Part shown: piece after piece, positions 3,389-36,669 of the stretch
Layout: each line of letters opens with the position of its first letter
Numbering within the stretch: position 1 is the stretch's first letter
Virus record (IMG/VR): IMGVR_UViG_3300025120_000020
Reading direction: 5' to 3' (one strand)
Length of the DNA: 64,000 bases
Source of the DNA: a virus
Notes under the pieces: model-generated
Databases searched by the model: none
Told to the model about the DNA's origin: nothing
The model's input: the letters and a program-made list of their open reading frames with translations, nothing else
Made by a program: the position numbers and the translations under genes

Positions 3389-4006
3389 TTAATAACCCCA
3401 ACTATTTAAGGTATGTCTAAACGGATTTTCTTCGATATTCCTAACCAAGTCAAGCATTTTTTGAGCGATTTCTCTTATTTCTTTTTGAGCGTGTTCACTA
3501 TTCCTAAGTTTTAGGAAGTTTGCAAAGCTTCTCATGTTGAATTGAACATCTGCTTGAATACGACTATTGTAAGTCTTGAAGAACCGTGCGGATTCCTTTG
3601 CTCGTTTGCGCCCTAACTCTGGCTCAAGTTCAGCAATGCATTGGTGGTAAAGCTCATTCCCTTTTTGTGTGTAAGACACTAACATTTCCTGCCAAAACGC
3701 TGGCCAATCTTCAGGAAGAAACATTTTGTCTTCCTTAAGCTCTTTGTAGCGAGCCGATTCAGCATTGAGCGAAGAAATCCTATGTTTAAGCAAATGTATA
3801 TGACTGGCAATATCACAATCAACAAGAAAGTGAACGCTACCCTTCTCAAAGGGTGTCTCATGTCCGTTACTCCAAAGCATGTCGATGAGCTTCGGAATTC
3901 TCTGTCTTTTCTCTTCATTTAACTCTCTACTTGTTGAAGTCCATGCGCTACAAGCGATGACTTCATCAGATCCATAGTGTCCAAGTAATTCTACTGTATT
4001 TGTCAT
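3389..4006 (-). CDS. thyX: Flavin-dependent thymidylate synthase
   Basis: GHETPFE and ThyX signature variant HLLKHRISSLNAESARY; HAQKEIR. Confidence 0.93.
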   Translation of the reverse strand: MTNTVELLGHYGSDEVIACSAWTSTSRELNEEKRQRIPKLIDMLWSNGHETPFEKGSVHFLVDCDIASHIHLLKHRISSLNAESARYKELKEDKMFLPEDWPAFWQEMLVSYTQKGNELYHQCIAELEPELGRKRAKESARFFKTYNSRIQADVQFNMRSFANFLKLRNSEHAQKEIREIAQKMLDLVRNIEENPFRHTLNSWGY

Positions 4007-4012
4007 ATTTTA

Positions 4013-4783
4013 TCAATATTTAAATGGATTTGCCGTGATAAATGTATTTGGCATTATCTTCCTAACATAAACATACCCTGAATTACGATAAGAGTCAAGC
4101 ATGTGATTTGTTAATGTTCTAAAAACCTTTGGAGTTCTATCTTTTACGCCCTTATTATTCATGGTAATACTCCAATCAGAATAAGTGGTTGCTTGGCCCA
4201 TTTCAAAGTCCATGCCCAACTGTTTCGCTATTCCCCAAAAATAAAACTCATCAGCAAAGATAACTTTTTCTTTCACAAAGAACTGTGACCAGTGCTCAAA
4301 AGTCTCAACAAACACTTCCACATCTTTTCTTCGGCAAACAAAAAACTGACAAACAGCGTTATACTCACCAAAATCGTAACCTTTTATCCCCTCCTTGAAA
4401 ATCTTTTGACCTTTAACTTTTGTGTGGAAGCTAAAATGCTTGGTAAAAGTCGTTTTTTTATATTTTTTTTTGATCAGGTCTACTGTGGTATCCAAATCAT
4501 ACAGGGGGAAATGAGAATCGCTAATTAAAGTAAAGTATTCATTGTCCTCGTCCTCTAAAGCTGCCCTCATTAGCTCTATTGTCGCTTCTACTAATGAAAA
4601 ATGACCCCAAGCTGTTGGAACGGTATTTTTTATGCAGTAATTAGAGAATGGGTGCTTAGTTTGATGTTTTGAGTGCAAATAAAGATTAAAACAGTCCTTG
4701 TCTCCCTGATTAAAAAACTCCTCCCAAACGCGATTGTGATAAAAAGAATTGATTGTTAAATTCAAAAAAGCTACTTTTTCCAT
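4013..4783 (-). CDS. GT14 / Core-2 I-branching (Branch)-like glycosyltransferase
   Basis: KVAFLNL, W..FF, YLH, TAWGHFSLVEATIELM..AL..NEYFTLISDSHFPLY, ADEFYF. Start placed at MEKVAF. Confidence 0.78.
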   Translation of the reverse strand: MEKVAFLNLTINSFYHNRVWEEFFNQGDKDCFNLYLHSKHQTKHPFSNYCIKNTVPTAWGHFSLVEATIELMRAALEDEDNEYFTLISDSHFPLYDLDTTVDLIKKKYKKTTFTKHFSFHTKVKGQKIFKEGIKGYDFGEYNAVCQFFVCRRKDVEVFVETFEHWSQFFVKEKVIFADEFYFWGIAKQLGMDFEMGQATTYSDWSITMNNKGVKDRTPKVFRTLTNHMLDSYRNSGYVYVRKIMPNTFITANPFKY

Positions 4784-4829
4784 TAATTTGTGTTTATAGT
4801 GTATTATAATAGTATAACCCAATTATACT

Positions 4830-6420: not shown

Positions 6421-6729
6421 TTAAAAATAAAGTTCATCAAAGAACCTATTTCCATTATATGCCTTGTCATCAATCCAAAAATCATATGCTGGCTTGTTCA
6501 TCTTAAGCTCTGTATATTTGACCCCCCACTCTTTAAGTTGCTTCTTTGTAAGCTCCGACCAATCTTTTCCTGAGTTCCCTCCTCTCGCAGTCCAGTAGAT
6601 TACTGTATTGCCACTATCAACCAATCCATTGAAATATTGAATACGAGCTTTCATAGGGCGAGCTAATTCATATCTGCCCCGACTATCTGTGCAAATAGTC
6701 CCATCAATGTCTACGATAAAAGTTTTCAT
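6421..6729 (-). CDS. Minimal HAD-family phosphatase (capsule-biosynthesis type)
   Basis: Motif I VDIDGTI, motif II WTAR, K-P and IDDK motifs III/IV. Confidence 0.85.
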   Translation of the reverse strand: MKTFIVDIDGTICTDSRGRYELARPMKARIQYFNGLVDSGNTVIYWTARGGNSGKDWSELTKKQLKEWGVKYTELKMNKPAYDFWIDDKAYNGNRFFDELYF

Positions 6730-7202
6730 AGTTCTTTAATTTTTGTTATAATTTTCGTGGCACTTATATCCTCAGAGAATGGAATGAAATATACCTCTGT
6801 TTGTCCACAGGATGCCTTCTCAGACGGATGTAATGTCGCAATGCTATAATCTCCACCTTTATACCAACGAGAGGGCTTAAGGTGTCTCAGGTAGCCAGAA
6901 ACTGTTGCGTCATTAAACACAAACACATGGTCAACGCACTCATGACAAGCTACAAGAAAGGCTCTCTGTTTTTGGCTGATAATAGGTCTTTCTGAACCCT
7001 TATTTTGCTTAACGCTTTCATCTCCATTCACGCCGACAACTAATTCGTAATCATCGGGCAAATCTTCCTTAATTGATTTCAGAAGGTGTGCATGACCTGC
7101 GTGAAACAAATCAAAGCAACCATTAGTAAAGGCCATATTTTTCGTTCCCGTCGAAAAATGGTGCATAATCTTAGTTATATTAGCTATTTTAGGATGATTC
7201 AT
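6726..7202 (-). CDS. rfaE2: Heptose-1-phosphate nucleotidyltransferase (RfaE domain II / HldC-like)
   Basis: FTNGCFDLFHAGH (HxGH), VGVNGDESV..NKG..RPI, KGGDY. Confidence 0.9.
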   Translation of the reverse strand: MNHPKIANITKIMHHFSTGTKNMAFTNGCFDLFHAGHAHLLKSIKEDLPDDYELVVGVNGDESVKQNKGSERPIISQKQRAFLVACHECVDHVFVFNDATVSGYLRHLKPSRWYKGGDYSIATLHPSEKASCGQTEVYFIPFSEDISATKIITKIKEL

Positions 7203-7948
7203 ATCGTTGCTGTTCCAGCTTTACTGATGACAATGCTACAGCAAGTCTGAGCGTAGTCAATCGCTGAATCTATATCTTGATTGAATAAATAGTTAGTCGC
7301 AAAAGCAGCAAGGAAAGTGTCTCCAGCACCACTCACATCTCTCACTTGAGCGACAGATTTCAAAGGGTATTTCTTTCCTTTGAACCTACATCCTCCACCC
7401 CCTAAAGTAACAATAAGGTTATCCATACCCATCCCTTTAAATCCATTCTCTTTGTATTCCTTTTCGTTGATTTTAATCAGATCAAATGAATTAGCCCACT
7501 TTGAATTATATTTCTTTTTAGTGTCTAAAAAAGACATTTGAGCATTATCTGCAATATATTTTAAATCTTTGTCTGTCAGATATCCCTTATTGTAATCAGA
7601 AACGATTACAGCATCATAAGACCACACGTTTGCTTCATGCAACTTTAATTCATCAATCTCTTTATACTCATCTGAATCAACGCGCAAAAACATTTGATTA
7701 GAATTAGAGTCAATATATCTAACCTTTGCTCCAGTGCTTTTATTGCTTTTAATCTCTACCTCTGCCTTTTTACCTAAATCATCAAGGCAAGCAATGACAT
7801 TTCTATGGACGTTAAAGGCCATACCCATAAAGGTAACTGAGTCCTCCTGCTTAAAAACAGGGACTGGAGCTTCTGGGCATAATCTATCAGCAGACCCATA
7901 AGTAAAAATGTCTAAGCATGACTCTCCAATAACAAGAATTTTTTTCAT
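7199..7948 (-). CDS. rfaE1: Heptose-7-phosphate kinase (RfaE domain I / HldA-like, PfkB family)
   Basis: ILVIGESCLD..G..RLCPEAPVPV, VSDYNKG, DVSGAGDTF. Confidence 0.88.
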   Translation of the reverse strand: MKKILVIGESCLDIFTYGSADRLCPEAPVPVFKQEDSVTFMGMAFNVHRNVIACLDDLGKKAEVEIKSNKSTGAKVRYIDSNSNQMFLRVDSDEYKEIDELKLHEANVWSYDAVIVSDYNKGYLTDKDLKYIADNAQMSFLDTKKKYNSKWANSFDLIKINEKEYKENGFKGMGMDNLIVTLGGGGCRFKGKKYPLKSVAQVRDVSGAGDTFLAAFATNYLFNQDIDSAIDYAQTCCSIVISKAGTATI

Positions 7949-8319
7949 TTCTGCGAATCTCCTTTTTGAACCCTGTAAGAATCTTCCTCAAAATGCTGAG
8001 TGCTTACTTCAAATACAGAAGATTCTTCTATAGCAATGAGTTTATGAGGTATACAAGGCTTTAAATGAATTGTCTCTCCAACCCGCAAGATCATTTCTTT
8101 TTCCTCGGCATTACTCAAATCATAATATTTTAAAAGAAGTTTACCTTTTATTACGGCCCAAGTTTCTTCCTTCTTGATATGGTAGTGCATGGAGAACTCC
8201 GCTCCTTTATTAAACTTTAGAATTTTTCCGCAATAAAGTTCGTTGTTCGTAATCCAGATCTCTTTACCCCAGCCCTTTGCATAAGTCTCAACAATACCTT
8301 TGATTGGCTCCATGCTCAT
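7945..8319 (-). CDS. Cupin sugar-phosphate isomerase-like protein
   Basis: KGWGKE, SMHYHIKKEETW, PHKL, EVST (mannose-6-phosphate isomerase type II-like cupin). Confidence 0.8.
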   Translation of the reverse strand: MSMEPIKGIVETYAKGWGKEIWITNNELYCGKILKFNKGAEFSMHYHIKKEETWAVIKGKLLLKYYDLSNAEEKEMILRVGETIHLKPCIPHKLIAIEESSVFEVSTQHFEEDSYRVQKGDSQK

Positions 8320-8325
8320 TAAGTA

Positions 8326-8353
8326 ATTTTAGCTAGAATACATGAAAATTCAA
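8326..8353 (-). promoter_or_regulatory. sigma70-like promoter TTGAAT-N16-TAAAAT for the heptose operon
   Basis: ATG 6 nt after the -10; lies just downstream of a terminator. Confidence 0.6.
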
Positions 8354-8363
8354 TAGCTAATCA

Positions 8364-8392
8364 TAAAAAAACCGTCCCGAAGGACGGCTTTT
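8364..8392 (-). terminator. Rho-independent terminator
   Basis: Minus strand GCCGTCC-TTCG-GGACGGT followed by a T run. Confidence 0.85.
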
Positions 8393-8552
8393 AAATTATT
8401 TAAAATGATTTATGTTTATTGCTGCTCTTTCCCCCTCTCCTTTCCTTTTACCTCGCCTTTATTAGAAATAGCTGAGTAACAAAAAAAAGATGAGATAGCT
8501 GACAATACAATTATCCTCACGGTTTAATCACATAAATTATGATGCGTTATTT

Positions 8553-8753
8553 TTACTTATCGCCTTTATCTTTGGCTTTACCAAAATTAATGCTGAGAAA
8601 ATCTACGACTTTGTAAGCTTTCGACAGCCAAGTCCCCTGTTTTGGGGTTGGGGAAGCAGCAGCAAATGCACTAGCCGCAGCAATAACAGCACAAGCCCAG
8701 TTAAACCAAACTTTATCTTCAACGAACGATGTAATAATCTCAATAATATCCAT
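8553..8753 (-). CDS. Small membrane protein, holin-like
   Basis: 66 aa, hydrophobic helix WACAVIAAASAFAAA then PTPK and a basic C-terminus. Confidence 0.55.
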   Translation of the reverse strand: MDIIEIITSFVEDKVWFNWACAVIAAASAFAAASPTPKQGTWLSKAYKVVDFLSINFGKAKDKGDK

Positions 8754-8803
8754 AACAATATTTTGTTTGTATAGCTTATTACACCAAGCGAGGCAACAGG
8801 GAA

Positions 8804-8935
8804 TTATCTGCCTTGTCCCCTGTAGGGTTTTTTGTAATTTTTAGAGCTTTTAATGCTAGAGGTCTTGCTTTTAGCATGAACTCCTTTGCGCCTAATCTTC
8901 TTCTTTTCCTCGTAAGTTTTGTTTGCTTTTTTCAT
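8804..8935 (-). CDS. Small highly basic protein ending YRGQGR
   Basis: 43 aa from MKKANK; ATGA-like coupling to the upstream stop region. Confidence 0.65.
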   Translation of the reverse strand: MKKANKTYEEKKKIRRKGVHAKSKTSSIKSSKNYKKPYRGQGR

Positions 8936-9477
8936 TTTTTTAATTCTTCTAATAAACTTTCTAAATTTCTCATTAGAGAGTCTTCTTTGAGCCAAATATT
9001 GTCACAAATTGTCCTGCGATATTCGCCATGTTTATCGACATCACTAGCGTAATTCCAACCTTTTAAAGTTACTTCTCCAGTCACAGAATCAGCCTCTGTT
9101 GTTGTCCAAATCACAATAGCACCTTTATTTAAGTATTGTTTCAATTGACGGGGAGGGATACACCTTTTAAATTTCTCCCAGTGAGAATTCCTTAAACCTT
9201 TTACTTCTATAAACGAATCTTTTATTGCAATGTCAGGCTTGCCTCTAGAGTTTTCAAAATCAATAAAGCATGGAGATACTTCTACATCTTTTAAATTTTC
9301 TCTTAACCAAACTACAGTAGCTACCTCGGACTTTACGCCAATTAAATTACTATCAACTCTATTGTGATTGTAAGATCCAGAGCCTTTGGTTTTATCGCCT
9401 CCGTATTTTTCAACAATTTTTTTGGCATGATCCTCACACCAATCCAGTTGTTCTTGCGATAACTCTATTTCAATCAT
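8932..9477 (-). CDS. PD-(D/E)XK nuclease-like protein
   Basis: GVKSE...PDIAIKDSFIEVKG. Confidence 0.6.
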   Translation of the reverse strand: MIEIELSQEQLDWCEDHAKKIVEKYGGDKTKGSGSYNHNRVDSNLIGVKSEVATVVWLRENLKDVEVSPCFIDFENSRGKPDIAIKDSFIEVKGLRNSHWEKFKRCIPPRQLKQYLNKGAIVIWTTTEADSVTGEVTLKGWNYASDVDKHGEYRRTICDNIWLKEDSLMRNLESLLEELKK

Positions 9478-11644: not shown

Positions 11645-12445
11645 TTATACACACTCTAAGACTTGTTTCCAATCCATTTCTCCAATCGCAGATGTTAGCT
11701 TTGTAATGTCTGCTTGGGTAAATTTTTGATACTTGCCCTTGAGTTTTGTGGGCATCGCTATCTGCTTGACCTTTGCCCCAGAGTTTTCTGCCATTTTATC
11801 TGCAATTTCTTTAAAAGAAACAGAGTTGCCAGTCCCAACATTAAAAACCCCATTAGTATCATGATGAAGCATCCTATAATGAACTTCACAAACATCTTCC
11901 ACATGCACGAAGTCTCTACTAGCTTTTCCCCTAAATACTTTGATCTCGCCATCTTCTTGAATTTGTTTGATGAATTTCGTTATCGGACTTGCCTGATCTC
12001 CTTTATGTTCCTCATGTGGACCATATACATTAAAATAGCGAAATCCTTGATAGGGATGATCTTCGTTCAAAAGCCAGTTGTCAAACATATATTTGCTATA
12101 AGCATAAGGGTTTAGAGGGACGCAGAACTGATCCTCTTCAAATGTCTCTGCTGCACCATAGACAGAACCACTGCTAGCGTATTGAAATTTAACACCCATA
12201 TTCGCACATAATTGATAAAGTGTGCCAGAGAATATAAAATTCTCATTTAAAATCTTTTTTAAGTCGGTTTCCGTAGTGCTAGAGTTAGCTCCAAGATGAA
12301 TGACGGCATCAATACCATTCAAAGGAGGCAAACTACCACCGAACTTAATATCGTAAGGAACGACCTCTATTCCTCTTTTCTCAAGATAAGGACAGAGATT
12401 TTTGCCAATAAACCCCTCACTGCCCGTAACTAATACCCTTTTCAT
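11645..12445 (-). CDS. rfaD: ADP-L-glycero-D-manno-heptose 6-epimerase-like SDR
   Basis: TGSEGFIG, HLGANSSTTE, YASSGSVYG, PLNPYAYSK..FD, FRYFNVYGP.E.HKG..AS, YQKFTQAD. Confidence 0.88.
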   Translation of the reverse strand: MKRVLVTGSEGFIGKNLCPYLEKRGIEVVPYDIKFGGSLPPLNGIDAVIHLGANSSTTETDLKKILNENFIFSGTLYQLCANMGVKFQYASSGSVYGAAETFEEDQFCVPLNPYAYSKYMFDNWLLNEDHPYQGFRYFNVYGPHEEHKGDQASPITKFIKQIQEDGEIKVFRGKASRDFVHVEDVCEVHYRMLHHDTNGVFNVGTGNSVSFKEIADKMAENSGAKVKQIAMPTKLKGKYQKFTQADITKLTSAIGEMDWKQVLECV

Positions 12446-14442: not shown

Positions 14443-14622
14443 TCAACGGGCTTCGCCCGTGTCTGGATAGTTAGCGTTCTCCTTGCAAAAAATAGGGTTA
14501 GCATCTGCTTCAACATCAAAAGGGGTGTCCACAAACTCGCAATGAAAAACCCTTGTATATCCGTCCCCCTCCATATTGCCCCCACAGTTAGGGCAACAGA
14601 ACAATATTCGTTCTTCGTTCAT
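14443..14622 (-). CDS. Small Cys-rich (zinc-ribbon-like) protein, 59 aa
   Basis: Own translation MNEERILFCCPNCGGNMEGDGYTRVFHCEFVDTPFDVEADANPIFCKENANYPDTGEAR; ATGA overlap with the clp gene. Confidence 0.7.
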   Translation of the reverse strand: MNEERILFCCPNCGGNMEGDGYTRVFHCEFVDTPFDVEADANPIFCKENANYPDTGEAR

Positions 14623-16901
14623 ACGTTAATTTTGTTCAGGTTTATTTCTGAGCAGTTTTCTGTGATTTTTTCGCAAATGAACTTGTTAATATGAGTTTCA
14701 AATCGTTCTTCAAAATCAACTAGATTTTTACAGGAGCGAGCAAACTTTTTCAAAAAACTCAAGGTGAATATAACTTCTATTTTGTTTAAGCGGAGATCAT
14801 CATTAATTTTTTGAAGCTTGTTATAAAGGATTCTAAAAATATCCTTCTTTTTAATGTGCTGCAATAATACATTGCAATCAACCAGAGATAATAATTCTTT
14901 AAAAATAGACGAGGTTGGAGATTCTTTGTCGGAATTAAAGCCCATTGATGAAGTATTTTCTACTCCGCTAGTCACAAAAATTTTGACGTTGGAAAAGTCA
15001 GCGATATCTCCATTGGACATTTGCAACTTTCCGTCCTTTAGTATTTGAGCAAATAGACTCTTAACAGACAAGTGTAACTTATGGAAATCGTCAATAATAA
15101 TGACGCTATTAGGATGTATATTGATCTTCTCGCATAAAGAAGTGTTGTTCATGATTTCTGGTAAGATTTTAAACTTAGCGAACTCATCTGAGAAATGAAC
15201 TCCACTATAATTTAAGACATTCACCCCACTCTTTTCCAGAGAATCCTTTAAGGTAGAGCAGAAAAAACTTTTGCCCGTAGACTCTTCACCAGTGATGCAG
15301 TAAATACTTGGAACTGAACTTTTTTTATGTATACCGTAACTTGAAAGTGATATTGATTCAATAAGAGAATCGATGATTTTATCATTACCCACAAACTTTT
15401 CTTTTAAGCTGACAGACAGATCTGATAAAATATTTGACTTCCTCAAGGGATTTTCCTTTTTAGAGAAAAATTCTTTTAAGTGTTTTACTGTAACATCCGG
15501 TAACTCTTCTTCTTTTTCGTTTGTCCAAGAAGTCAACTGATCTGTGACAAAAGAAAGAATAGAATCTTCAGAATCAAGGTCAATATTTTTTTCTTTTATA
15601 TTCTCTTTAATTTGTTTAAAAGAGGAGTCTTGGCCCCAATGAGAAACTTTTGCTTGTGCGCCACAATGATCTATAACATCAATAGCTTTATCTGGATAAA
15701 ACTTATTTGGAAGATATTTCTCACAAAAGTTAATGACATTGTTTATGAAGTTGTCTGTATAACGGACACAATGAAACTCTTCATAATATGAAGCAATAAC
15801 GGGTAATATCTCTTGCATCTGGAACTTAGAAGGCTCCTTGATGATTACCCTTTCAAAGCGACGATCTAGAGCAGTATCTTTTTTAATTGTATTAGTATAT
15901 TCATTAATTGTAGTCGCCCCGATACAACTTATAGTGCCTCTTGCTAATTCTGGCTTGAGTATATTTGAGGCTTCCAAAGAGTTCTCAGTTGTTCCTCCCG
16001 CTCCCACCAAAGTATGGATTTCGTCTATAAAGAGAATGATATTATCATACTTTTTAACCTCATTGACAAACTTCTCCAACCTCTCTTCAAACTGCCCCCT
16101 GTATTGAGTTCCAGCAACCATGCTAGACAAACTCAAGGAGTAAATAACCTTATTGGCTATAAGCTCTGGAGCCTCCTCATTAACAATATTAGACGCTAGT
16201 CCCTCGATCAAAGAGGTTTTACCCGTTCCCGCTGGCCCCACTAAAATCGCATTGGGCTTTTTCTTCCTACAGAGGATGGTGGCTATCTCTGATATTTTAT
16301 CATCAAAGTCCACAACCTTATCGAACTCGTCGCGGGAGGCTTTTAGGTTTAAATTTTCCGCGAATTGATCTAGGATCTTATTTTCGTCAAACATCCCGAT
16401 CCAGTTTCCCATAGGTAGATCAAAATCGTTGTTTTCGGAATTAAATTCTATTTCCACCTCTTCTTCATCTTTTACGAAAAAAGAAATGTCATTAATTAGT
16501 TCATTGCGATCATCTACGTCGAAAACTTCTGCTAAAGCCTTCGGAGTATATTCATCGCTTAACATACACAAAAGCATTGACTCTGTGCTAATATAATCTA
16601 ACCCAAAAAGCTGTTTTTGGATAAACTCAGAATGATCAATAAGCTGAGATAATTTTTTTGAATACTGCCTAGAAATCTCCTTATTTGGATTTTTCTTTTC
16701 AATAACACGTTGCGAAGCTATATTAAGTGCTTTGATGCTATCATATCTACCTAAAATAGTTTCACATGACAAACTTAGGTTATCCATGAAACAGGAGAAG
16801 AAAATATCTAAATCAACTTTATTCCTGCCAAGATGTTCAGTTAAGTCTTGAGATTTTTTTAATATAGAAGCTAGTTGAGGAGTGAAGGGCAAATCGTTCA
16901 T
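14619..16901 (-). CDS. ClpA/ClpC-like AAA+ ATPase
   Basis: Clp N-domain; GPAGTGKT, VAGTQYRGQFEER, ILFIDEIH, ALDRRF, PDKAID; degenerate second AAA (GEESTGKS, IIDDFHK); MGF loop. Confidence 0.9.
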   Translation of the reverse strand: MNDLPFTPQLASILKKSQDLTEHLGRNKVDLDIFFSCFMDNLSLSCETILGRYDSIKALNIASQRVIEKKNPNKEISRQYSKKLSQLIDHSEFIQKQLFGLDYISTESMLLCMLSDEYTPKALAEVFDVDDRNELINDISFFVKDEEEVEIEFNSENNDFDLPMGNWIGMFDENKILDQFAENLNLKASRDEFDKVVDFDDKISEIATILCRKKKPNAILVGPAGTGKTSLIEGLASNIVNEEAPELIANKVIYSLSLSSMVAGTQYRGQFEERLEKFVNEVKKYDNIILFIDEIHTLVGAGGTTENSLEASNILKPELARGTISCIGATTINEYTNTIKKDTALDRRFERVIIKEPSKFQMQEILPVIASYYEEFHCVRYTDNFINNVINFCEKYLPNKFYPDKAIDVIDHCGAQAKVSHWGQDSSFKQIKENIKEKNIDLDSEDSILSFVTDQLTSWTNEKEEELPDVTVKHLKEFFSKKENPLRKSNILSDLSVSLKEKFVGNDKIIDSLIESISLSSYGIHKKSSVPSIYCITGEESTGKSFFCSTLKDSLEKSGVNVLNYSGVHFSDEFAKFKILPEIMNNTSLCEKINIHPNSVIIIDDFHKLHLSVKSLFAQILKDGKLQMSNGDIADFSNVKIFVTSGVENTSSMGFNSDKESPTSSIFKELLSLVDCNVLLQHIKKKDIFRILYNKLQKINDDLRLNKIEVIFTLSFLKKFARSCKNLVDFEERFETHINKFICEKITENCSEINLNKINV

Positions 16902-19459
16902 TTCTTCTTGAGATCCATTAATTTCATCATAATCTTGGTATCTACGACCCTTGCTGAGTCTACGAAATTACTACCACGACCTTTGCTTGCATTCAAGATC
17001 AAAATACAGTCTTTTGAAATTTTGTATTGATCAAGAAAATCAGAAAGAGTTTCAGACCTTGAGTTATCCATAATTAGAAAGCTAGTTGAAGCAGTATTAT
17101 CTGAACCTTCAATAAGCATATATTTGTTGCCGTTTTGAGATATCCTTGTAAAGAAATCTTTAACTTGGCAAACAGTTTTGAACTTAGAGTTCTCTGGAAT
17201 CTCATCCAAGTCTTTCAGAGAATTCATTGAGCCAAACTCGTCCTCAAAGCAGTCCTTCAAGTCAAAAGAATAACTGTAGCCCAATAAACTATTTTCATAC
17301 CACCAATTAGAAAACTTGCGATATGGTTTATTCTTGTCAAAAATTTCTTTATAGCTCTTAAACTTCTTTTTAAAAGTCTCAAACCTAGACTCCTTCATTA
17401 TAGGGCGACCATCATCAGCGATAGCCTTAGCCTCAATGACTTTAGATATTGCATGTAAAATATCATCACCGAACCTGTCTTTAAAAAGAATAAAATTCCT
17501 CTTTTCTCTATCAGTCAAGATATTGAATGCTTGAGCTTCTAGAACCAAACGACTCCTTTTCTCTGTGGTTTCCCCCATAGCTCCAGCTTGAATTAACGCA
17601 ACTAGAACAGAAATATTAATACCACAGCTTTTCGCAGCGGAAAAAACATCATACTTACTCGAAAAGCCATCAGAACCCTTAAAGTTTATAAGACCCTCAA
17701 TCGATTTCGCTGAAATACCTTTAATGCTATTTAAGCCATATCTAATGTTGTCCCCTTCAATCGAAAAATTCATTTTTGATTTAAATAAGTTTGGGGGCAG
17801 TAGTTTGATGCCGAAATGATCTAATTCTTGGTGGACAGAGGCGACAACTGCCAAGGGATCTGGATCAAACTCTGAAGATTCAAGGACAGACAAAAAGAAC
17901 TCTCTAGGATACTTATACTTTAGATAAACCGTCTTAGCTGCCAACTCAGCATAAGCAAAACTGTGAGACTTGTTGAAAGAGTAATCTGCTGAAGCTTGAA
18001 GAGCACTCCAATAGAAGTCACTAATCTGAGAGTCTAATCCTAAATCTTCTGCTGCCTGATAAATCCTATCTCTCCACTTGGGCATCTCGTCAGCTTTCTT
18101 TTTGCCAACAATGCGACGAAGAGTTTCTGCCTCTTCTAGGGTCAAACCGAAAACCTTATTAGCAATCTGCATCAACTGCTCTTGATACAAAATAACATTT
18201 TTAGACCAAGATAGGATTTCGTCTAGTTCTTTATGAAGGTCACTTGATTGGGGGGCTTGTTTTTGTCGAATGTATTCGTCAACAAATTGTAAAGCACCCG
18301 GTCTAGCAAGAGCTACAACATCAGAAAGTTCATTTAAATTATCTGGCTTAACGTCTTGGCACACTCTAAAGTTTGTGCTAGCAGAAATCTGGAATAAGCC
18401 TTCTGGATGATTGTAATCCTGAAGCTTCTCGTATATGAATCCATCATTAGGGTCAACGTCATCTATATTGATTCCAATCTTGTCGCAAGTCCTATGAGCA
18501 ATAGTTAGAGTTCTTAGGCCAAGAATATCGAACTTAACCATAAGGTCAGCGACATCATGCATATTGTAGCCTGTTATAAGGTCTCCATCTTTAGTTTTTT
18601 GTAGAGGAACAACATCTCCTATTGATTGGGAGCAAATGGCGATACCAGATGGATGAACTCCCGTGTTTTTAATTAAATTTTCTATCTTCTTCGCGTTGGT
18701 GAAAGTCTTATTGTGTTTCTTAACCCAATCGTCGAATTTTTCATTATCTTCTCTTGCATTTTCCAGAGAGGATACTTTACCGTGAAGCTTCGGAATCATG
18801 TCGCTAACCGCATTAGCTTGTTCCTCCCTAGCTTCATCAAAATACTTGGTCGCTTCTCTGATACAGAGCTTAGAACTAAAAGTGTTGAAGGTTAAGATCT
18901 TTGCTGTCCTGCCCTCATGTTTTTCTTCGATGTATTGAATAACTCTCTGTCTTTGCTCATAACTAATGTCTGAGTCAACATCAGGAAGTAGGCTACCAAC
19001 AAGAAACTCTTTATTGCGTTTATCGTAAACTTTTTTAGCACGACTCTTCGAAACAAAACGCTCAAAGAATAAGTTGTGAGGGATAGGATCAATATTGGTT
19101 ACCCCAAGCAAATACAAAACTAAAGATCCAGCAGCAGAACCACGACCTGCTCCAGTGGGGATACTGTTTTCATGGCAGAAGTTTAGAACATCCCAGTTTA
19201 ACAAAATATAATCTGTAAACCCAAGCTCTTCGAAAGTCTCTAATTCTTGTTTCGCACGATCAAAATATTCTTTTTTATTCTCATGCTTTGTAATTCCTTT
19301 ATCCCGCAATCCTTTGCGGGTAAGCTCATACATAATTTCTTTAGTGGAGCTTTCTTTGCCAAGCCCAATACTACTCAATACAGCTTCGCTGACAGAAGTC
19401 TTAGGTAATTCAACGCCAATAGGCTCACAATCGTCGTAAACAGAAAAATCTCCAAACAT
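16898..19459 (-). CDS. dnaE: DNA polymerase III alpha catalytic core lacking the PHP domain
   Basis: GAGRGSAAGSLV, FFERF, PDVDSD, HPSG, KFDILGL, YSFNKSH, IRYGL..IKG, C-terminal OB fold. Confidence 0.95.
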   Translation of the reverse strand: MFGDFSVYDDCEPIGVELPKTSVSEAVLSSIGLGKESSTKEIMYELTRKGLRDKGITKHENKKEYFDRAKQELETFEELGFTDYILLNWDVLNFCHENSIPTGAGRGSAAGSLVLYLLGVTNIDPIPHNLFFERFVSKSRAKKVYDKRNKEFLVGSLLPDVDSDISYEQRQRVIQYIEEKHEGRTAKILTFNTFSSKLCIREATKYFDEAREEQANAVSDMIPKLHGKVSSLENAREDNEKFDDWVKKHNKTFTNAKKIENLIKNTGVHPSGIAICSQSIGDVVPLQKTKDGDLITGYNMHDVADLMVKFDILGLRTLTIAHRTCDKIGINIDDVDPNDGFIYEKLQDYNHPEGLFQISASTNFRVCQDVKPDNLNELSDVVALARPGALQFVDEYIRQKQAPQSSDLHKELDEILSWSKNVILYQEQLMQIANKVFGLTLEEAETLRRIVGKKKADEMPKWRDRIYQAAEDLGLDSQISDFYWSALQASADYSFNKSHSFAYAELAAKTVYLKYKYPREFFLSVLESSEFDPDPLAVVASVHQELDHFGIKLLPPNLFKSKMNFSIEGDNIRYGLNSIKGISAKSIEGLINFKGSDGFSSKYDVFSAAKSCGINISVLVALIQAGAMGETTEKRSRLVLEAQAFNILTDREKRNFILFKDRFGDDILHAISKVIEAKAIADDGRPIMKESRFETFKKKFKSYKEIFDKNKPYRKFSNWWYENSLLGYSYSFDLKDCFEDEFGSMNSLKDLDEIPENSKFKTVCQVKDFFTRISQNGNKYMLIEGSDNTASTSFLIMDNSRSETLSDFLDQYKISKDCILILNASKGRGSNFVDSARVVDTKIMMKLMDLKKK

Positions 19460-20073
19460 TACAAATTCATTTCTTTTTTAAGTGCAGAAAAAACCTTAAA
19501 GCACATCTTGTTGTCATATAAGGCATCATGCAGCTTCTCTTCTTCAAACTCTATGCCAAAGAATTTAAGCAATTGGTTTTGAGAAACTCTCGCCTTGAGG
19601 GATCGGTCATGGATTATCTTATACTGCCAACTCAATAAATCTTTCTTGGGCTTATCGAGATCTTCCCTGTAAGCCTTGCCGAAGGCTCTAGTGTCATAAA
19701 TTCGATTAAGATACGAGTAATCAGGAGTTTCCCCCAATAACCTTTGCATCCCAGCTACCATGTAGACATCAAAGCCCAAAAGGTTCTGACCAACAATTTT
19801 ATATTCTGGGTTGAATAAATCAGCTTTAAAATCAGCCCAAACTTTCTTCAAAGGTTCTTTTCTTTCGTCATACTTGTCCCAAGTGAAACCAGTAAGGCGC
19901 TCTACTAATTTATTGATTTGCAGATCTTTATGACTAATATACCTATCGTTCTCTTCGATGATTCTATTACCTTGACAGATCAACCATGAAACCTGCCAAG
20001 TGCGAGAAGAATGTAAATTAAGTCCTTCAGTTTCCGTATCGAAAACTAGATATTTTTGATTATGTGGTAGCAT
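19459..20073 (-). CDS. DEDDh 3'-5' exonuclease (DnaQ/epsilon-like)
   Basis: FDTETEG, GQNLLGFD, HDALYD. Confidence 0.9.
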   Translation of the reverse strand: MLPHNQKYLVFDTETEGLNLHSSRTWQVSWLICQGNRIIEENDRYISHKDLQINKLVERLTGFTWDKYDERKEPLKKVWADFKADLFNPEYKIVGQNLLGFDVYMVAGMQRLLGETPDYSYLNRIYDTRAFGKAYREDLDKPKKDLLSWQYKIIHDRSLKARVSQNQLLKFFGIEFEEEKLHDALYDNKMCFKVFSALKKEMNL

Positions 20074-20761
20074 CTTTATAAGACTCCCAGCAGAACTCGT
20101 CTGAGCAGAAGTGATTTAGGTTTGGGCTTTGGAAAGTTGGAGATTTGCCTCCAGATCTATTGCAAGTAGCTTTATACATTTGTGAAGCTGCAAATTCATC
20201 TTTGTTGTGATGAACAATTGTCTTAACTGCTTGCGTCTTGACTCCAAGTCCATCAATAACAGACTTGATTTGAAAATCAAAAGGATGATTATTATCTTCA
20301 ATAAAATAAACTGGGTCTAAGTGTTTAATATCTATATGAGATAATCCAAAATAAAATAAATTATTAAAAATATAAGAGTCGTAAAAGGGGACGCAAACCT
20401 TAAGGTTTTTAAAATCTTCCTTACTGTATTCGGATAAAATCAGGGAATTGCAATCATTCAAAGATGCACTGGAATACATTTTTTTTAAATCTTTTACCCC
20501 TTCATTATTTTTTGCAAAAAGAACTAACTTGCTAGACCTTTCGTTTTCATCAACTCCATTATTTATAACAGGAATCCTAAGACCAAATACTAAATTAATA
20601 CGCTCCTCTTGAAAAAGATTGTTAAATATTCTAAATCCATAAAAGCTATCCTCAACCAAGACAACGCGATCCAAGGAGTTGAGCTTTGCGATTTCCAATA
20701 TTTTCTCTGCGGTCAGAATAGACTTACCTATACTAAACTGGCTCTTAAAGAGAGGTATCAT
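20060..20761 (-). CDS. Stand-alone PHP domain of DNA polymerase III alpha (degenerate metal sites)
   Basis: FKSQFSIGKSIL, VVLVED..YG, LVFG, LVLFAKNNEG.K.L align by eye to the DnaE N-terminal PHP. Confidence 0.8.
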   Translation of the reverse strand: MIPLFKSQFSIGKSILTAEKILEIAKLNSLDRVVLVEDSFYGFRIFNNLFQEERINLVFGLRIPVINNGVDENERSSKLVLFAKNNEGVKDLKKMYSSASLNDCNSLILSEYSKEDFKNLKVCVPFYDSYIFNNLFYFGLSHIDIKHLDPVYFIEDNNHPFDFQIKSVIDGLGVKTQAVKTIVHHNKDEFAASQMYKATCNRSGGKSPTFQSPNLNHFCSDEFCWESYKDATT

Positions 20762-26594: not shown

Positions 26595-27623
26595 CTAACA
26601 TGCATTCATATCGTTTGCAACCATTTTTCTCACCAAGCCTAAAAAATCTGTTTTTGGAGACCAACCCAACTCTCTTCTAGCTAAGTCAGAATCTCCCAAA
26701 AGCAACTCTACTTCAGCAGGGCGATAAAAAGCTGGACTAATCTGGACTAAGATCTTGTCTTCATGGTAATACTTCTCGTTAACACTATAGCCATCCCATC
26801 GACATTGATCTTTAGCAAATCCTGCAAAATTGAAAGCCTCCTCAACAAATTCTCTAATCGAGTGTGTTTCGTCTGAAGACAAGACATATTCTTTTGGATG
26901 CTCTTGGTTGAGCATCAACCAAACACCTTCAACAAAATCTTCAGCATCGCTCCAATCTCGCTTGGCATCTACATTACCTAACTCAAGAGGCATAAAATCG
27001 CCACTAGGGTATTCCTTTTGAATACGAGATACATTTTTGGTAATCTTACGAGTTACAAACTCTTCTCCGCGACGAGTTCCTTCATGGTTGAATAACCATC
27101 CTTGAATAGCAAACAAATGATAGGAATCTCTCCATACTTTTACCATGTGCCTCGCACTAGCCTTAGAAACACCATAAGGGCTTCTTGGTCGCAACGGATG
27201 AAGTTCTGACTGTGGAGAATGTAAAACGTCTCCAAACTCCTCTGAGGAGCCAGCGTTGTAATAACGGCATTTAGGACAATGCTTGCGAATTGCCTCAAGC
27301 TGATACATTACAGCCATAGCATTTGTGTTCATGTGGTTTGCTGGTTGGGTCCAACTAACCCCCACAAAAGAATTAGCCGCAAAATTAATAAAATAATCTG
27401 GCTTCTCTTTAGAGATAACCTCTTCTGTATTTACAGAATCAGTAACATCTAAGTCAATGAGTTTAAAGCGTGGATTATCTACCAGATGAGCAATATTGCT
27501 ATGATTTTTGACACTTAAACGCCGAACTCCAGCGATAATAGTGTGCTCAGTATTCTTCAGAAGATAGTCAGCCATGAAGCTGCCATCTTGACCTGTTACT
27601 CCTGTAATAATAACTTTTTTCAT
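26595..27623 (-). CDS. gmd: GDP-mannose 4,6-dehydratase
   Basis: ITGVTGQDGS, SSEEFG, PRSPYGVSK, FNHE..RRG..FVTRKI, LGNVDAKRDW, RPAEV..LLGD. Confidence 0.93.
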   Translation of the reverse strand: MKKVIITGVTGQDGSFMADYLLKNTEHTIIAGVRRLSVKNHSNIAHLVDNPRFKLIDLDVTDSVNTEEVISKEKPDYFINFAANSFVGVSWTQPANHMNTNAMAVMYQLEAIRKHCPKCRYYNAGSSEEFGDVLHSPQSELHPLRPRSPYGVSKASARHMVKVWRDSYHLFAIQGWLFNHEGTRRGEEFVTRKITKNVSRIQKEYPSGDFMPLELGNVDAKRDWSDAEDFVEGVWLMLNQEHPKEYVLSSDETHSIREFVEEAFNFAGFAKDQCRWDGYSVNEKYYHEDKILVQISPAFYRPAEVELLLGDSDLARRELGWSPKTDFLGLVRKMVANDMNAC

Positions 27624-28456
27624 CTATTTTTTATCCAATCAATTAAATTTTTAGTTGGCTCCCAGCCCAAAAGGTCTTTTGCTAAGACTGAATTACAAAG
27701 AGTATCTTGAGCTTCACCCATCCTATCGCCATGATAGTTAATTTTTTTTTCGCCATACATTTCCGAAACCTCCTTTACAGAGTGATTATCTCCTCTACCT
27801 AATTCAAATAAATTTCCAAAAGATTTTTCCTCAAAAATTAAAATCAAAGCATCGACAATATCATCTACATGAGTGAAATCTCTACGTTTTGATCCATCTC
27901 CATAAATATTAAATGCCATACCCTCTCTGTAAGCTTTGTCCCAAATACCAATTAAAGTTGCTGCTCCTTCCTCTAATTGATGAGGTCCGTATACATTATA
28001 AAACCTTGCGGTGCTTGCTTGTATATTAAATAGTTTTTGATAAAGTTCAACCGTTTCTTCAGACAAATCTTTTGTGAATGTGTATGGATTTTTAAATTTA
28101 CCTGAATGGTGAGAAGAACTCCCAGCAAAAATTAGTGGGATATTATTGGACCTACAATATTCGCAAACATTAAATGTTGCAATCACGTTGTTTTTTGCAT
28201 ATAAAACTGGATCTTTAAATGAGGGTTGGATTCTAGCTGAAGCAGCCAAGTGATAAACTATATCAACATCTTCCTCAATGTTTTCTAGGGGGTATTCTAA
28301 AATGTCAGCATTAATGTAATTAACACCAGAAATTTCATTTTCTTTTTTACCAGTAGAGTAATTATCTATGCTTACAACATCATGGCCATATTCCAATAAT
28401 CTTTTGCAAAGATTATAACCTACAAATCCCGCTCCTCCTGTAACTAATATTTTCAT
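27620..28456 (-). CDS. NAD-dependent nucleotide-sugar epimerase/dehydratase
   Basis: TGGAGFVG, HLAA, PYTFTK (YxxxK), RFYNVYGP, GDG...RDFTHVDD. Confidence 0.9.
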   Translation of the reverse strand: MKILVTGGAGFVGYNLCKRLLEYGHDVVSIDNYSTGKKENEISGVNYINADILEYPLENIEEDVDIVYHLAASARIQPSFKDPVLYAKNNVIATFNVCEYCRSNNIPLIFAGSSSHHSGKFKNPYTFTKDLSEETVELYQKLFNIQASTARFYNVYGPHQLEEGAATLIGIWDKAYREGMAFNIYGDGSKRRDFTHVDDIVDALILIFEEKSFGNLFELGRGDNHSVKEVSEMYGEKKINYHGDRMGEAQDTLCNSVLAKDLLGWEPTKNLIDWIKNR

Positions 28457-29622
28457 TTGTTTTTAGATTGAAAGTCTTGGATATCATCAATAATAATTAT
28501 TAAGTTACCCACTTTGTAATGACCAAGCAAATTATTGGAAGATATAGCTGAACTTAGATTTTTTATTAAGTTGAAATCTTTCTGATCAAAGTTTCTCCCG
28601 TCAACATAAACCGTTACCTGATGATAATTAAACTCTGTTATTTTTTTAATTCTGCTATCCAAATTAAATAATGTTTTGTCGCAGTTTTCTGAAACATAAC
28701 TTTTTACATTCTCAGAGCTACAATCTTGATAAATTACATCACAAACAGGCTCAAGATGATAAAGAAGAGTTGGATTGCAGTATTTACAAACAATAGCTAC
28801 GTCATATTTAGGGAAAATAATCGGACTCAAATATTGATCTAGTAAAACATCAGTCCCCCATTTTCTAAAGAAGTTTCTCTCATTTTTGTGGTTTGTTTTT
28901 TGCCACTCTGGAGAATCTACCCCTGTATCACCACCAGAGATTTTGTTAAACCTACTGCCTCTAGAGGTGAAATGATAAACTAATCCATCCCAAGTTTGAA
29001 TCAATTCATATCCATTAATAACAAACCTATAAAAAAGATCGGAATCTTCCCTGCTTTGAGGAGCGAACAATTCATCATGTCCACCTATGCTCAAAAAATC
29101 TTCTTTATACATGCACCAAGGAGCGAACATTCCATTAGTCGTTTCGGAATCAGGCTTTTTCTGGTAATCATTTTTACACCAATCCACAAACTTATCATAA
29201 TCAAAGTCTTTCACTTCTGAACCTAGATCAACTAAAACTTTTGATTGGTGATCTGGGTGAATGGGAGGCTCTAATCTAGTAGCGCAAACAACCTTCCTTT
29301 TATCTAAATGTTTTAATATTTGATAATCTAAGTCGGGAGCAGCAACCATATCAGCATGAAAAGCCATGATTATATCTGTTGGGGCCATAGCTATCCCCTT
29401 GTCGAACATACCAACAATACCGACTCTTTCTGGTCCAGAATTTTTATAACAATGAAGTCTTTCATCATCCAATGAATCTAACCATTCTGAAGTTCCATCT
29501 GAAGAAGCGTCATCCAAAATTAAAATATGGTGAGAACCCTCCAATTTCTTTAAAGAATTGTAACATATTTTTAAGAATTCTAAATTATTTCTAGCTGGGA
29601 TTACAAAAGTAATAGCTCTCAT
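28453..29622 (-). CDS. GT2-family glycosyltransferase
   Basis: FVIPARN, DDASSDGT, HADM, GGHDE.F...REDSD. Confidence 0.88.
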   Translation of the reverse strand: MRAITFVIPARNNLEFLKICYNSLKKLEGSHHILILDDASSDGTSEWLDSLDDERLHCYKNSGPERVGIVGMFDKGIAMAPTDIIMAFHADMVAAPDLDYQILKHLDKRKVVCATRLEPPIHPDHQSKVLVDLGSEVKDFDYDKFVDWCKNDYQKKPDSETTNGMFAPWCMYKEDFLSIGGHDELFAPQSREDSDLFYRFVINGYELIQTWDGLVYHFTSRGSRFNKISGGDTGVDSPEWQKTNHKNERNFFRKWGTDVLLDQYLSPIIFPKYDVAIVCKYCNPTLLYHLEPVCDVIYQDCSSENVKSYVSENCDKTLFNLDSRIKKITEFNYHQVTVYVDGRNFDQKDFNLIKNLSSAISSNNLLGHYKVGNLIIIIDDIQDFQSKNK

Positions 29623-29623
29623 A

Positions 29624-30265
29624 TTATTTTTTAAGGTTAATTAAGAAAAAGAAAACTCTACAATTATTAAGATCATTTGTAATGTCTGTCCCATACTGAT
29701 TTCTAGAATTCAACAATAATTCTTGTAAACCAAATCCTGATATTTTAGAGTCTGGAAAGTTTTTTGTTAGAATTTCTATCATCTCCTTTGAGTCGTATTC
29801 ATATAAGTGAGTTCCTCCATCATACTCCCAAGTAGGGGTTAATCTTCTTGGAGTAGTTATAATTATTGTTTTTTCCGTAACAAATTTTAAGGACTGTAAA
29901 TATTGATCTATTTTTTCTGGAGGAAGATGTTCAAATGTTTCTATCGAAGTGCATACATCAAATTCATTCTCTTCAAATTCATCTTTCAAATTGAAAATAT
30001 CGCAAGTTAAAAAATGAACATTATCTCTTCCGAACCTGCTCTGACTTTCTTTGATTGAATCTTCATCTATGTCAATCCCTGTAACAGACTTTGCGCCAAG
30101 AGAATAAAGGATCATAGCTCCATATCCTCTACCAGTAGCTGCATCTAAAACTTTCTGACCCTTCGTCCAATAGTCAGCTATCACATAACGATCAATCATG
30201 GTTGAGGTTGCAGGATTTTTGAGTCTGTTTATCTCTTCAAGAGTGTGATTATCTGTAGTTTTCAT
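29624..30265 (-). CDS. Class I SAM-dependent methyltransferase
   Basis: VLDAATGRGYG, GIDID, FDV..SIETFEH, ITTP. Confidence 0.88.
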   Translation of the reverse strand: MKTTDNHTLEEINRLKNPATSTMIDRYVIADYWTKGQKVLDAATGRGYGAMILYSLGAKSVTGIDIDEDSIKESQSRFGRDNVHFLTCDIFNLKDEFEENEFDVCTSIETFEHLPPEKIDQYLQSLKFVTEKTIIITTPRRLTPTWEYDGGTHLYEYDSKEMIEILTKNFPDSKISGFGLQELLLNSRNQYGTDITNDLNNCRVFFFLINLKK

Positions 30266-31889: not shown

Positions 31890-32501
31890 TTAAATTGTAT
31901 CGTATAAATTATTTTGACGCTCTTGCTTTTTGATATCTTTTACATGAAGAATACAAAAATGCTCAATAGGTTCACTAGATAATTTAACTTGATTCTTCGC
32001 TCCCGCTAAGACCTCATGAACTTTATTCTGCCACTTAACATGACCTTTAGTGGAAACAAAACGAGATTGAAAATCAGGAAATCCCTCCCAACCCATTTTG
32101 TTTATTTCCCAGTTGTATTTTTTGATATGTTCTTCTGTCGCCCCACGAACGACATTGATCCTTGGAATCCAAAGCAGATCAATATCTCCTTTTTGCACTA
32201 CTGCCCTTAATGCATTCAATAATGAAGGTGGTATTTGTTCATCAGCATCAATCTGCATCAAATAGTCTTTTGTAGATAACTCAAATAAAGTATTTTTAAA
32301 AGCAGAAAAATCTTTCTGAAAGTCAAAGTAGTTTATTTTCAACCCGCAAAGCTTACAAAAATCTTCGATATCTTTAGTTACTTTGTTCTGATCTGCCAAG
32401 ATGACAATCTCCTCATCTGGTAAAACATATGGTTCAAGTGAATTAATTAATCTTTTAAATTCAAAAAACTCGTCTGCTACCGTTATCCCGTAAGTAATCA
32501 T
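31890..32501 (-). CDS. GT2-like glycosyltransferase
   Basis: ITYGITV..E, DFSAFKN, IDADE, PRIN, PDFQ.R, W..KVHE. Start placed at MITYG. Confidence 0.85.
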   Translation of the reverse strand: MITYGITVADEFFEFKRLINSLEPYVLPDEEIVILADQNKVTKDIEDFCKLCGLKINYFDFQKDFSAFKNTLFELSTKDYLMQIDADEQIPPSLLNALRAVVQKGDIDLLWIPRINVVRGATEEHIKKYNWEINKMGWEGFPDFQSRFVSTKGHVKWQNKVHEVLAGAKNQVKLSSEPIEHFCILHVKDIKKQERQNNLYDTI

Positions 32502-32540
32502 AAAAAAACTCCTTCTAGGTAAGCACAACCTAGAAGGAGC
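32502..32540 (-). terminator. Rho-independent terminator after hsp20
   Basis: 12-bp stem CTCCTTCTAGGT/ACCTAGAAGGAG followed by T7 on the minus strand. Confidence 0.8.
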
Positions 32541-32561
32541 GATATAAGTCACTTCAAAGTT

Positions 32562-36081: not shown

Positions 36082-36669
36082 ATGGATTATGACCCAACAG
36101 ATCCTGAATTAACTGATTTAGTTAAACAGAGTGACCATGAAGAAGCTTTAGGTTTGCTGATAGAGAGGCATTCAGGAATTTATGTTGATATGGTGAGGAG
36201 ATACGCATCAAAATCCCTACCTTCAAATGACGTTATTGACATAATTGATGAAAAAGATTACATAATTTACAAAGCAGCCTTAGATTATGACGAAAACAAA
36301 GCTAAGTTTTCCACCCATGTTGGCAACAAAGCAAAATATCTCTGTTTGAGCAAAAAAACAGCAAGGAAAAACGGTAAAATCATGTTGCCATTCGATTCAA
36401 TCGATTACTCCAAAGAGTCTGACGACTTGCACCCAGATGAAAGTTGCGAAATTAAAGAAAGCATGTTTTCAATTGTCGAACTTATAAATAGTCATCGCGA
36501 TGAAAGAGTAAAAACTATTTTTAAAGAACGCTACTTTGGAGGAGAAAAAGGTAAACTTCAAACTTGGAAAAATATTGGAGAACAAATTGGTGTCTCTGCT
36601 CAGGGCTGCATAAACATTCATGACCGAACATTAAAAGAATTTAAAAAACAATTTAAAAAAAATGCATAA
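36082..36669 (+). CDS. Phage RNA polymerase sigma factor (sigma70 family, regions 2 and 4)
   Basis: LIERH.G....VRRY, KAALDYD..KAKFST; IF.ERY....TW..IG..IGVS..G....H. Confidence 0.85.
   Translation: MDYDPTDPELTDLVKQSDHEEALGLLIERHSGIYVDMVRRYASKSLPSNDVIDIIDEKDYIIYKAALDYDENKAKFSTHVGNKAKYLCLSKKTARKNGKIMLPFDSIDYSKESDDLHPDESCEIKESMFSIVELINSHRDERVKTIFKERYFGGEKGKLQTWKNIGEQIGVSAQGCINIHDRTLKEFKKQFKKNA

Follow-up and report, generated by a model that had tools for sequence, protein, structure and literature searches.

The stretch of DNA analysed here (hereafter the window) is a 64,000-nucleotide segment of a marine tailed phage, IMG/VR record IMGVR_UViG_3300025120_000020, with about 37% G+C. On its minus strand, at 6421-8319, lie four open reading frames (ORFs) that encode, in this order, a metal-binding cupin of 124 aa (7945-8319), a PfkB kinase of 249 aa (7199-7948), a nucleotidyltransferase of 158 aa (6726-7202) and a phosphatase of the haloacid dehalogenase (HAD) superfamily of only 102 aa (6421-6729), the mini-HAD. 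Every junction among them is a 4-base ATGA overlap, and the ORFs, overlaps and family matches confirmed the ATGA-coupled four-gene operon announced in a preliminary description of this DNA. The operon is bounded upstream by the intrinsic terminator of the preceding gene (8367-8392, minus strand; an 11-pair stem with 5 G-C pairs, then a T run), and a convergent gene sits downstream. The promoter proposed in the same description was retained for its position only: the site TTGAAT-16-TAAAAT (8326-8353, minus strand) is well placed, ending 7 bases before the ATG of the cupin gene (8319), but as a consensus match only (9/12) it is not enriched over shuffled sequence. Two further genes of the window, overlooked in the preliminary description, bear on the operon: one for a short-chain dehydrogenase/reductase (SDR) of 266 aa (11645-12445, minus strand), about 3 kb away, and one for a protein of 369 aa resembling the heptosyltransferase family GT9 (41334-42443, plus strand).

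The route to ADP-heptose comprises an isomerase (the SIS-fold GmhA), a kinase, a phosphatase (GmhB) and a nucleotidyltransferase. The phage kinase matched PfkB (4e-16) and phrog_8133 (1e-72), exhibits the GAGD motif and found its best family in rfaE_dom_I (TIGR02198; 3.4e-35, 121.7 bits, below the cut-off of 345); it is a short form, with 249 aa against about 315 aa for HldA, i.e., some 65 residues fewer. The nucleotidyltransferase matched CTP_transf_like (1e-16) and, best of all families, rfaE_dom_II (TIGR02199; 1e-37, 129.2 bits, below the cut-off of 181.5), and its HxGH and KG..RP motifs are invariant with those of domain II of E. coli HldE. Its C-terminal SATKIITK had been taken as a sign of altered specificity. 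The equivalent motif is STT in E. coli HldE, STT or STS in operons of the Candidate Phyla Radiation (CPR) and ASS or SST in cyanophages; since it varies in this way (STT, STS, SST, ASS, SAT) among cassette transferases next to canonical heptose genes, we did not retain this hint, which is a weak one. The SDR was clearly closest to the HldD family TIGR02197 (1.4e-70, 238 bits, cut-off 274.6), with GalE next at 93 bits. The GT9-like protein scored above the cut-off of PF01075 (1.2e-8, 35.1 bits, cut-off 22) over profile positions 165-230 only, the donor-binding part, and gave weak matches to lipopolysaccharide (LPS) heptosyltransferases III and RfaQ, far below the NCBIfam cut-offs.

The mini-HAD is of the capless C0 type, and all four HAD motifs are intact (DxDxT, T47, K79, DD87-88). 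It matched phrog_1238 (8e-27) and PDB 9iqw (4e-7), and aligned over its full length with RB69 gp51 (32% identity, E-value 2e-13), a homology at the family level. Other matches were fainter: 23.6 bits to TIGR01689, the EcbF-BcbF family (cut-off 162), and 25 bits, below the cut-off, to HAD_PNKP, the best Pfam family. No similarity to E. coli GmhB was detectable (E-value 0.56). AfhF, the HY126 counterpart of gp51, is reported to strip the distal phosphate from arabinofuranose-1,5-bisphosphate, in a route made up of a kinase, a phosphatase and a transferase (PMC13326640). In PDB 9iqw ("Capsule biosynthesis protein," 134 aa), the stretch that aligned is identical to RB69 gp51 (L183:3709-4095(-)); from this identity, a structure of an AfhF-type mini-HAD seems to exist, and a literature search on PDB 9iqw found no paper.

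The cupin belongs to Cupin_2 (PF07883; 5e-8, 33 bits, cut-off 27.2). It also scored above the cut-off of Lyx_isomer (PF07385; 22.9 bits, cut-off 20.8), with only positions 83-131 of the 222 in the profile covered, and just under that of the type II phosphomannose isomerase (PMI) domain PF01050 (23.0 bits, cut-off 23.6), so that it resembles the latter family but is not a member of it. Profile alignment with hhalign paired it with the PMI-like C-terminal domain of E. coli ManC (E-value 2.6e-5, probability 75%), and the two have WG, K and S-x-H..E-x-W motifs in common, beyond the generic cupin signature. The match to the WbuC family (TIGR04366, 27.3 bits) stayed below the cut-off of 42. A search of the PDB with the single sequence gave only generic cupins (best E-value 0.15) and, with a profile, bicupins first; an Atlas search returned only unnamed viral cupin clusters. 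Among 30 homologues, the metal ligands of its two cupin motifs, H45, H47, E52 and H92, and about 20 other residues are invariant, as is a family-specific C-terminal motif, E-x-S-T-Q-H-F-x-x-D-S-Y-R. The AlphaFold2 model is a confident single beta-barrel (pLDDT 92.9). Its top structural match was the cupin domain of CapF (Z 15.7, 14% identity); among the near-tied matches, sequence identity was highest for the Thermococcus mini-PMI of 104-110 aa (Z 15.0, 21% identity, root-mean-square deviation 1.8 Å over about 100 residues) and D-lyxose isomerase (Z 14.7, 25% identity; 22-25% across lyxose/mannose isomerases). In the Foldseek and VIA rankings, isomerases, CapF-like epimerases and oxygenases all fell within about 1 Z of each other. 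Judging from profiles and motifs, the closest specific relatives of the cupin appear to be the manno-type aldose-ketose isomerases, i.e., the type II PMI domain and D-lyxose isomerase.

The preliminary description had reported neither GmhA nor GmhB in the window. Profiles built on GmhA and GmhB sequences from E. coli, CPR and DPANN upheld this absence, their best E-value against all six-frame ORFs of the window being 0.35. The cupin is also present in CPR bacteria, DPANN archaea and other groups, and we compared its distribution with that of GmhA in 301 Patescibacteria and 201 DPANN genomes. A strong HldA-type kinase was found in 25 of the 301 Patescibacteria genomes. GmhA accompanied it in 20, directly beside the kinase in 19 of them; three had no GmhA, and there the cupin adjoined the kinase or was fused to it instead; the remaining two (one 2.6-kb contig and one lone kinase) were uninformative. 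Among the 53 DPANN genomes with the kinase, GmhA was absent from 10 of the 11 with the cupin and present in 36 of the 42 without it. The mutual exclusion of cupin and GmhA was thus seen in two phyla from different domains, with Fisher's exact test p-values of 3.9e-6 (DPANN), 0.004 (Patescibacteria) and 1e-8 (pooled), which overstate the independence of the data because these are incomplete and interrelated metagenome-assembled genomes.

Gene order and gene fusions pointed in the same direction. Operons of the type GmhA-HldA-GmhB-HldC(-HldD) (loci L174 and L175) are collinear with operons of the type cupin-HldA-GmhB-HldC(-HldD) (L036 and L080). In one CPR genome and two from DPANN, a single ORF of 439-443 aa joins the cupin to the C-terminus of the kinase (L173:5449-6768(-), L179:2225-3556(+), L180:2094-3413(+)), and a kinase-GmhA fusion ORF of 504 aa occurs in a DPANN genome (L181:1939-3453(-)). 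Such a slot swap combined with alternative fusions is the classic signature of non-orthologous displacement, here putatively of GmhA. HldC-GmhB fusion proteins (338-392 aa) were also observed in CPR/DPANN heptose operons (L173:4452-5630(-), L179:3543-4592(+), L182:2177-3193(-)).

The same set of genes recurs in other viruses. Transferase, kinase, HAD, cupin and HldD-like epimerase occur together in the cyanomyoviruses P-SSM2 (gp309-313), P-TIM68 (gp191-196) and S-SM2; the epimerase gene lies inside the cassette in P-SSM2, P-TIM68 and many viral loci. At least 595 IMG/VR viral contigs encode the cupin, and we fetched 80 viral cupin loci, in which neighbours were counted up to 5 kb from the cupin. 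A kinase or HldE-like match was found in 41 of the 80, and 33 of these 41 also carried the mini-HAD. The order of the cassette genes differs among viral loci, an argument that function, and not inherited synteny, links them. About 30 of the 80 come from a single lineage whose cupin gene is separate from the kinase gene; in three long or complete viral genomes with this separation, the kinase is encoded elsewhere in the same genome. No SIS_2 domain was detected in the complete genomes of P-SSM2, P-TIM68 and S-SM2 nor in five IMG/VR genomes with the cupin. One IMG/VR contig of 41 kb (G001) is near-identical to the window across the operon region, with 98% identity in the cupin, and gave no GmhA match; a DNA-level search of the window against phage records gave no match.

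The cassettes of P-TIM68 (L001, 1-5000) and S-SM2 (L002, 1-5000) are extended by a transketolase-like protein, a Zn alcohol dehydrogenase and a FabG-like reductase, genes whose family matches hint at further sugar modification. Public records label the mini-HAD "phosphoheptose isomerase" and the cupin "cysteine dioxygenase" (P-TIM68 L001, P-SSM2 L003, JS10 L178, RB69 L183), and phrog_1238 and phrog_7851 bear these labels too; both are wrong by fold. The literature on these phages touches the subject in passing: a cyanophage genome paper only mentions "heptose-related LPS genes" (PMC7378029), and rfaE-type LPS-related genes were noted in the genome paper on pelagimyophages (PMC7029224).

The mini-HAD and GmhB likewise excluded each other. 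The 41 viral loci with both cupin and kinase comprised 33 with the mini-HAD, none with GmhB and eight with neither, and the corresponding cellular loci comprised four with the mini-HAD, three with GmhB and seven with neither, the two phosphatases never occurring together. This mutual exclusion, added to the homology with AfhF and RB69 gp51, supports the placing of the mini-HAD in the GmhB slot by the preliminary description, although the claim that it fills the GmhB step is less strongly supported than the one made for the cupin. The latter claim, that the cupin is a non-orthologous replacement of GmhA, likewise came from that description and is well supported by comparative genomics, namely the exclusion pattern, the slot swap, the fusions and the lack of SIS_2 in the eight phage genomes or contigs examined.

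We thus propose, with a probability of about 0.7, that the operon, together with the HldD-like epimerase and probably the GT9-like gene, encodes a self-contained route from sedoheptulose-7-phosphate to ADP-glycero-beta-D-manno-heptose. In a first step, the cupin would act as a metal-dependent sedoheptulose-7-phosphate isomerase, a GmhA analogue producing D-glycero-D-manno-heptose-7-phosphate. In its C1-C2 chemistry, the reaction of GmhA equals the conversion of fructose-6-phosphate to mannose-6-phosphate, transposed to a seven-carbon sugar. The short HldA-like PfkB kinase would then phosphorylate C1 as a heptose-7-phosphate 1-kinase, and the mini-HAD, of AfhF or EcbF-BcbF type, would take off the distal 7-phosphate as a heptose-1,7-bisphosphate 7-phosphatase. 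The HldC-like transferase, a candidate heptose-1-phosphate adenylyltransferase, would add AMP, and the HldD-like epimerase, a putative ADP-glycero-manno-heptose 6-epimerase, would invert C6; the GT9-like protein is a candidate user of the product. This scheme is built on homology, gene order and comparative distribution, from which we infer every catalytic activity, the nucleotide and the acceptor. The operon is real and, with these predicted activities, would be a variant ADP-heptose pathway, non-orthologous in two of its steps. A literature search found no paper describing a cupin sedoheptulose-7-phosphate isomerase.

Several observations weigh against this proposal, besides the incomplete and related genomes behind the exclusion pattern. 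Kinase, transferase and epimerase all score below the NCBIfam equivalog cut-offs, and substrate and nucleotide could therefore differ from those proposed. By its modelled fold alone, the cupin could be an isomerase as well as an epimerase, because the cupin domain of the nucleotide-sugar 3-epimerase CapF scores as high (Z 15.7). In addition, a large and well-supported sister clade of the cupin is encoded directly upstream of GDP-mannose 4,6-dehydratase (GMD), not of heptose genes, in polysaccharide clusters of Deltaproteobacteria and Binataceae (L039, L043, L049 and about 20 more loci, with the cupin at 8001 and the next gene at about 8400-9400), and one complete phage genome carries the cupin and GMD without the kinase. 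The cupin family is thus not uniformly linked to heptose. Members of the GMD-linked clade may be small phosphomannose isomerases, or something else; the cupin of the window is placed in the other major clade, whose members mostly occur in heptose contexts.

These observations leave some room for three other explanations. The one that survives best, although we consider it unlikely, is that the cupin is a tailoring enzyme, a CapF- or WbuC-like epimerase/isomerase acting on the nucleotide-heptose or on a 4-keto intermediate, with heptose-7-phosphate supplied by the GmhA of the host. The top rank of CapF among the structural matches, the weak WbuC match (TIGR04366, 27 bits), the many cellular homologues directly upstream of GMD and the presence of GMD and an SDR in the window itself (26595-28456) would all be accounted for in this way. 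However, the cupin excludes GmhA in cellular genomes of free-living type, for which there is no host enzyme to draw on, it takes the place of GmhA in operons and is fused in some genomes to the kinase, which acts in the step that follows, its identity to CapF is 14% compared to 21-25% for sugar isomerases, and the GMD-linked cupins form a separate, well-supported clade.

The second explanation, already raised in the preliminary description as a pathway to a different sugar, holds that the operon activates another sugar by the same logic, from ketose phosphate to aldose phosphate, bisphosphate, 1-phosphate and NDP-sugar, for instance through a mutase-free route from fructose-6-phosphate to NDP-mannose or a pentose route like that of phage arabinose synthesis. 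It would agree with the likeness of the cupin to PMI and D-lyxose/mannose isomerase, with the kinase and transferase scores below the HldE equivalog cut-offs, with the action of the characterised HAD relative on arabinofuranose-1,5-bisphosphate, and with the mannose role suggested for part of the family by the GMD-linked cousins. Nevertheless, the heptose families are best by wide margins for kinase, transferase and epimerase, and the CPR/DPANN operons pair the cupin with canonical GmhB, HldC and HldD. Because the same window also encodes the GT9-like protein and the HldD-like enzyme, a C6 epimerase for which neither a hexose nor a pentose is a substrate, we consider this alternative less likely than the heptose route, and marginally less probable than a tailoring cupin.

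The least probable explanation is that the HAD stands outside the sugar pathway, e.g., as a merely co-transcribed nucleotide or polynucleotide phosphatase, a host enzyme removing the 7-phosphate: the PNKP phosphatase domain as best Pfam match (25 bits, below the cut-off), weaker matches to the "polynucleotide kinase" families phrog_415 and phrog_505, and eight viral and seven cellular cupin-kinase loci with neither HAD nor GmhB within 5 kb would fit it, but its start codon overlaps the stop of the transferase gene, the characterised protein nearest to it dephosphorylates a sugar bisphosphate, and it is present in 33 of the 41 viral loci, none of which has GmhB, while cellular loci never have both. 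The proposed ADP-heptose route remains our preferred reading of the operon.

Other genes of the window complete the picture of this phage. Its replication genes encode DnaB, a primase, a RecA-like protein and a split DnaE-type polymerase, with ORFs of their own for the exonuclease and PHP domains; a double AAA ATPase resembling ClpB is encoded next to the polymerase (14619-16901 and 16898-20761, both on the minus strand). The window also codes for ribonucleotide reductase, ThyX and a tape measure protein of 1573 aa. A role of the operon sugar on DNA, as in the phage arabinose route, was considered and rejected: neither an SIS isomerase nor a ThyA-like 5-hydroxycytosine synthase was seen, and the neighbouring Thy1/ThyX gene (3389-4006) is an ordinary match to flavin-dependent thymidylate synthase. 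A second sugar cluster (26595-30265, minus strand) consists of GMD (TIGR01472, 311 bits), an SDR epimerase/reductase, a GT2 glycosyltransferase and an S-adenosylmethionine-dependent methyltransferase; the family matches suggest that the phage also makes a 6-deoxyhexose. Five further glycosyltransferase-like genes (2244-2933, 4013-4822, 31890-32552, 36662-37744 and 39613-41337) correspond to DUF5672, GT14 "Branch," GT2 and two GT1-type proteins. This glycosylation set is unusually large for a single 64-kb stretch of phage DNA.

Both the LPS inner core and heptosylated proteins are made from ADP-heptose, which the innate immunity of animals also senses as a bacterial signal. To our knowledge, GmhA is considered the universal first enzyme of ADP-heptose synthesis; it has been studied as a drug target. 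On balance we favour the broader view, held a little less firmly than the route itself, that the cupin family is an undescribed and widespread GmhA analogue in hundreds of marine phages, CPR and DPANN, and that phages combining it with the mini-HAD supply their own ADP-heptose, probably heptosylating molecules of the virion or of the host surface via GT9-like transferases. If so, a second, unrelated isomerase would alter the inference of heptose capacity from genomic data, in which annotation pipelines at present score such cupin-bearing pathways as incomplete, and many ocean phages would equip their hosts with a complete heptose pathway.

The proposed system can be compared with several known ones. 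The cupin domains of CapF and WbuC, from UDP-L-FucNAc-type pathways, are, like the window cupin, metal-binding cupins of sugar biosynthesis, but they belong to enzymes that act on nucleotide 4-keto sugars and have no link to HldA-type kinases. The D-lyxose/D-mannose isomerases (PF07385; PDB 7nzo, 2y0o) are cupin aldose-ketose isomerases for manno-configured sugars and have, among its structural matches, the highest identity to the window cupin (22-25%), although the D-lyxose isomerases use unphosphorylated sugars as substrates and exceed the cupin in length by about 50 residues. Similarly, the type II PMI domain at the C-terminus of ManC/AlgA (PF01050) and the archaeal mini-PMIs (PDB 7zvm, 7zvy) are single small metal-binding cupins; the type II PMI has the WG motif, the pre-barrel lysine and the S-x-H...E-x-W metal motif in common with the window cupin, which differs in its first metal ligand (His, not Gln), its own C-terminal motif and its heptose-gene partners.

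At the level of the whole pathway, the phage Afh route to UDP-arabinofuranose (AfhE, AfhF, RB69 gp51-55) follows the same isomerase-kinase-distal phosphatase-nucleotidyltransferase logic with a homologous mini-HAD. It differs by its SIS-fold arabinose-5-phosphate isomerase, its APH-like kinase and its MurU-like transferase (PMC13326640); moreover, its sugar is a pentose placed on DNA, whereas the partners in the window are HldA-, HldC- and HldD-like and no 5-hydroxycytosine synthase was seen. Compared to the bacterial pathway for ADP-L-glycero-beta-D-manno-heptose, the phage system has, in the window, a cupin and an AfhF-type mini-HAD instead of the SIS-fold GmhA and GmhB, a kinase shorter by about 65 residues and three homologues under the equivalog cut-offs, and it is encoded by a phage. 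It is nevertheless this bacterial pathway with which it would share the order of steps, its kinase, transferase and epimerase being homologous to HldA, HldC and HldD, with a GT9-like gene present as well.

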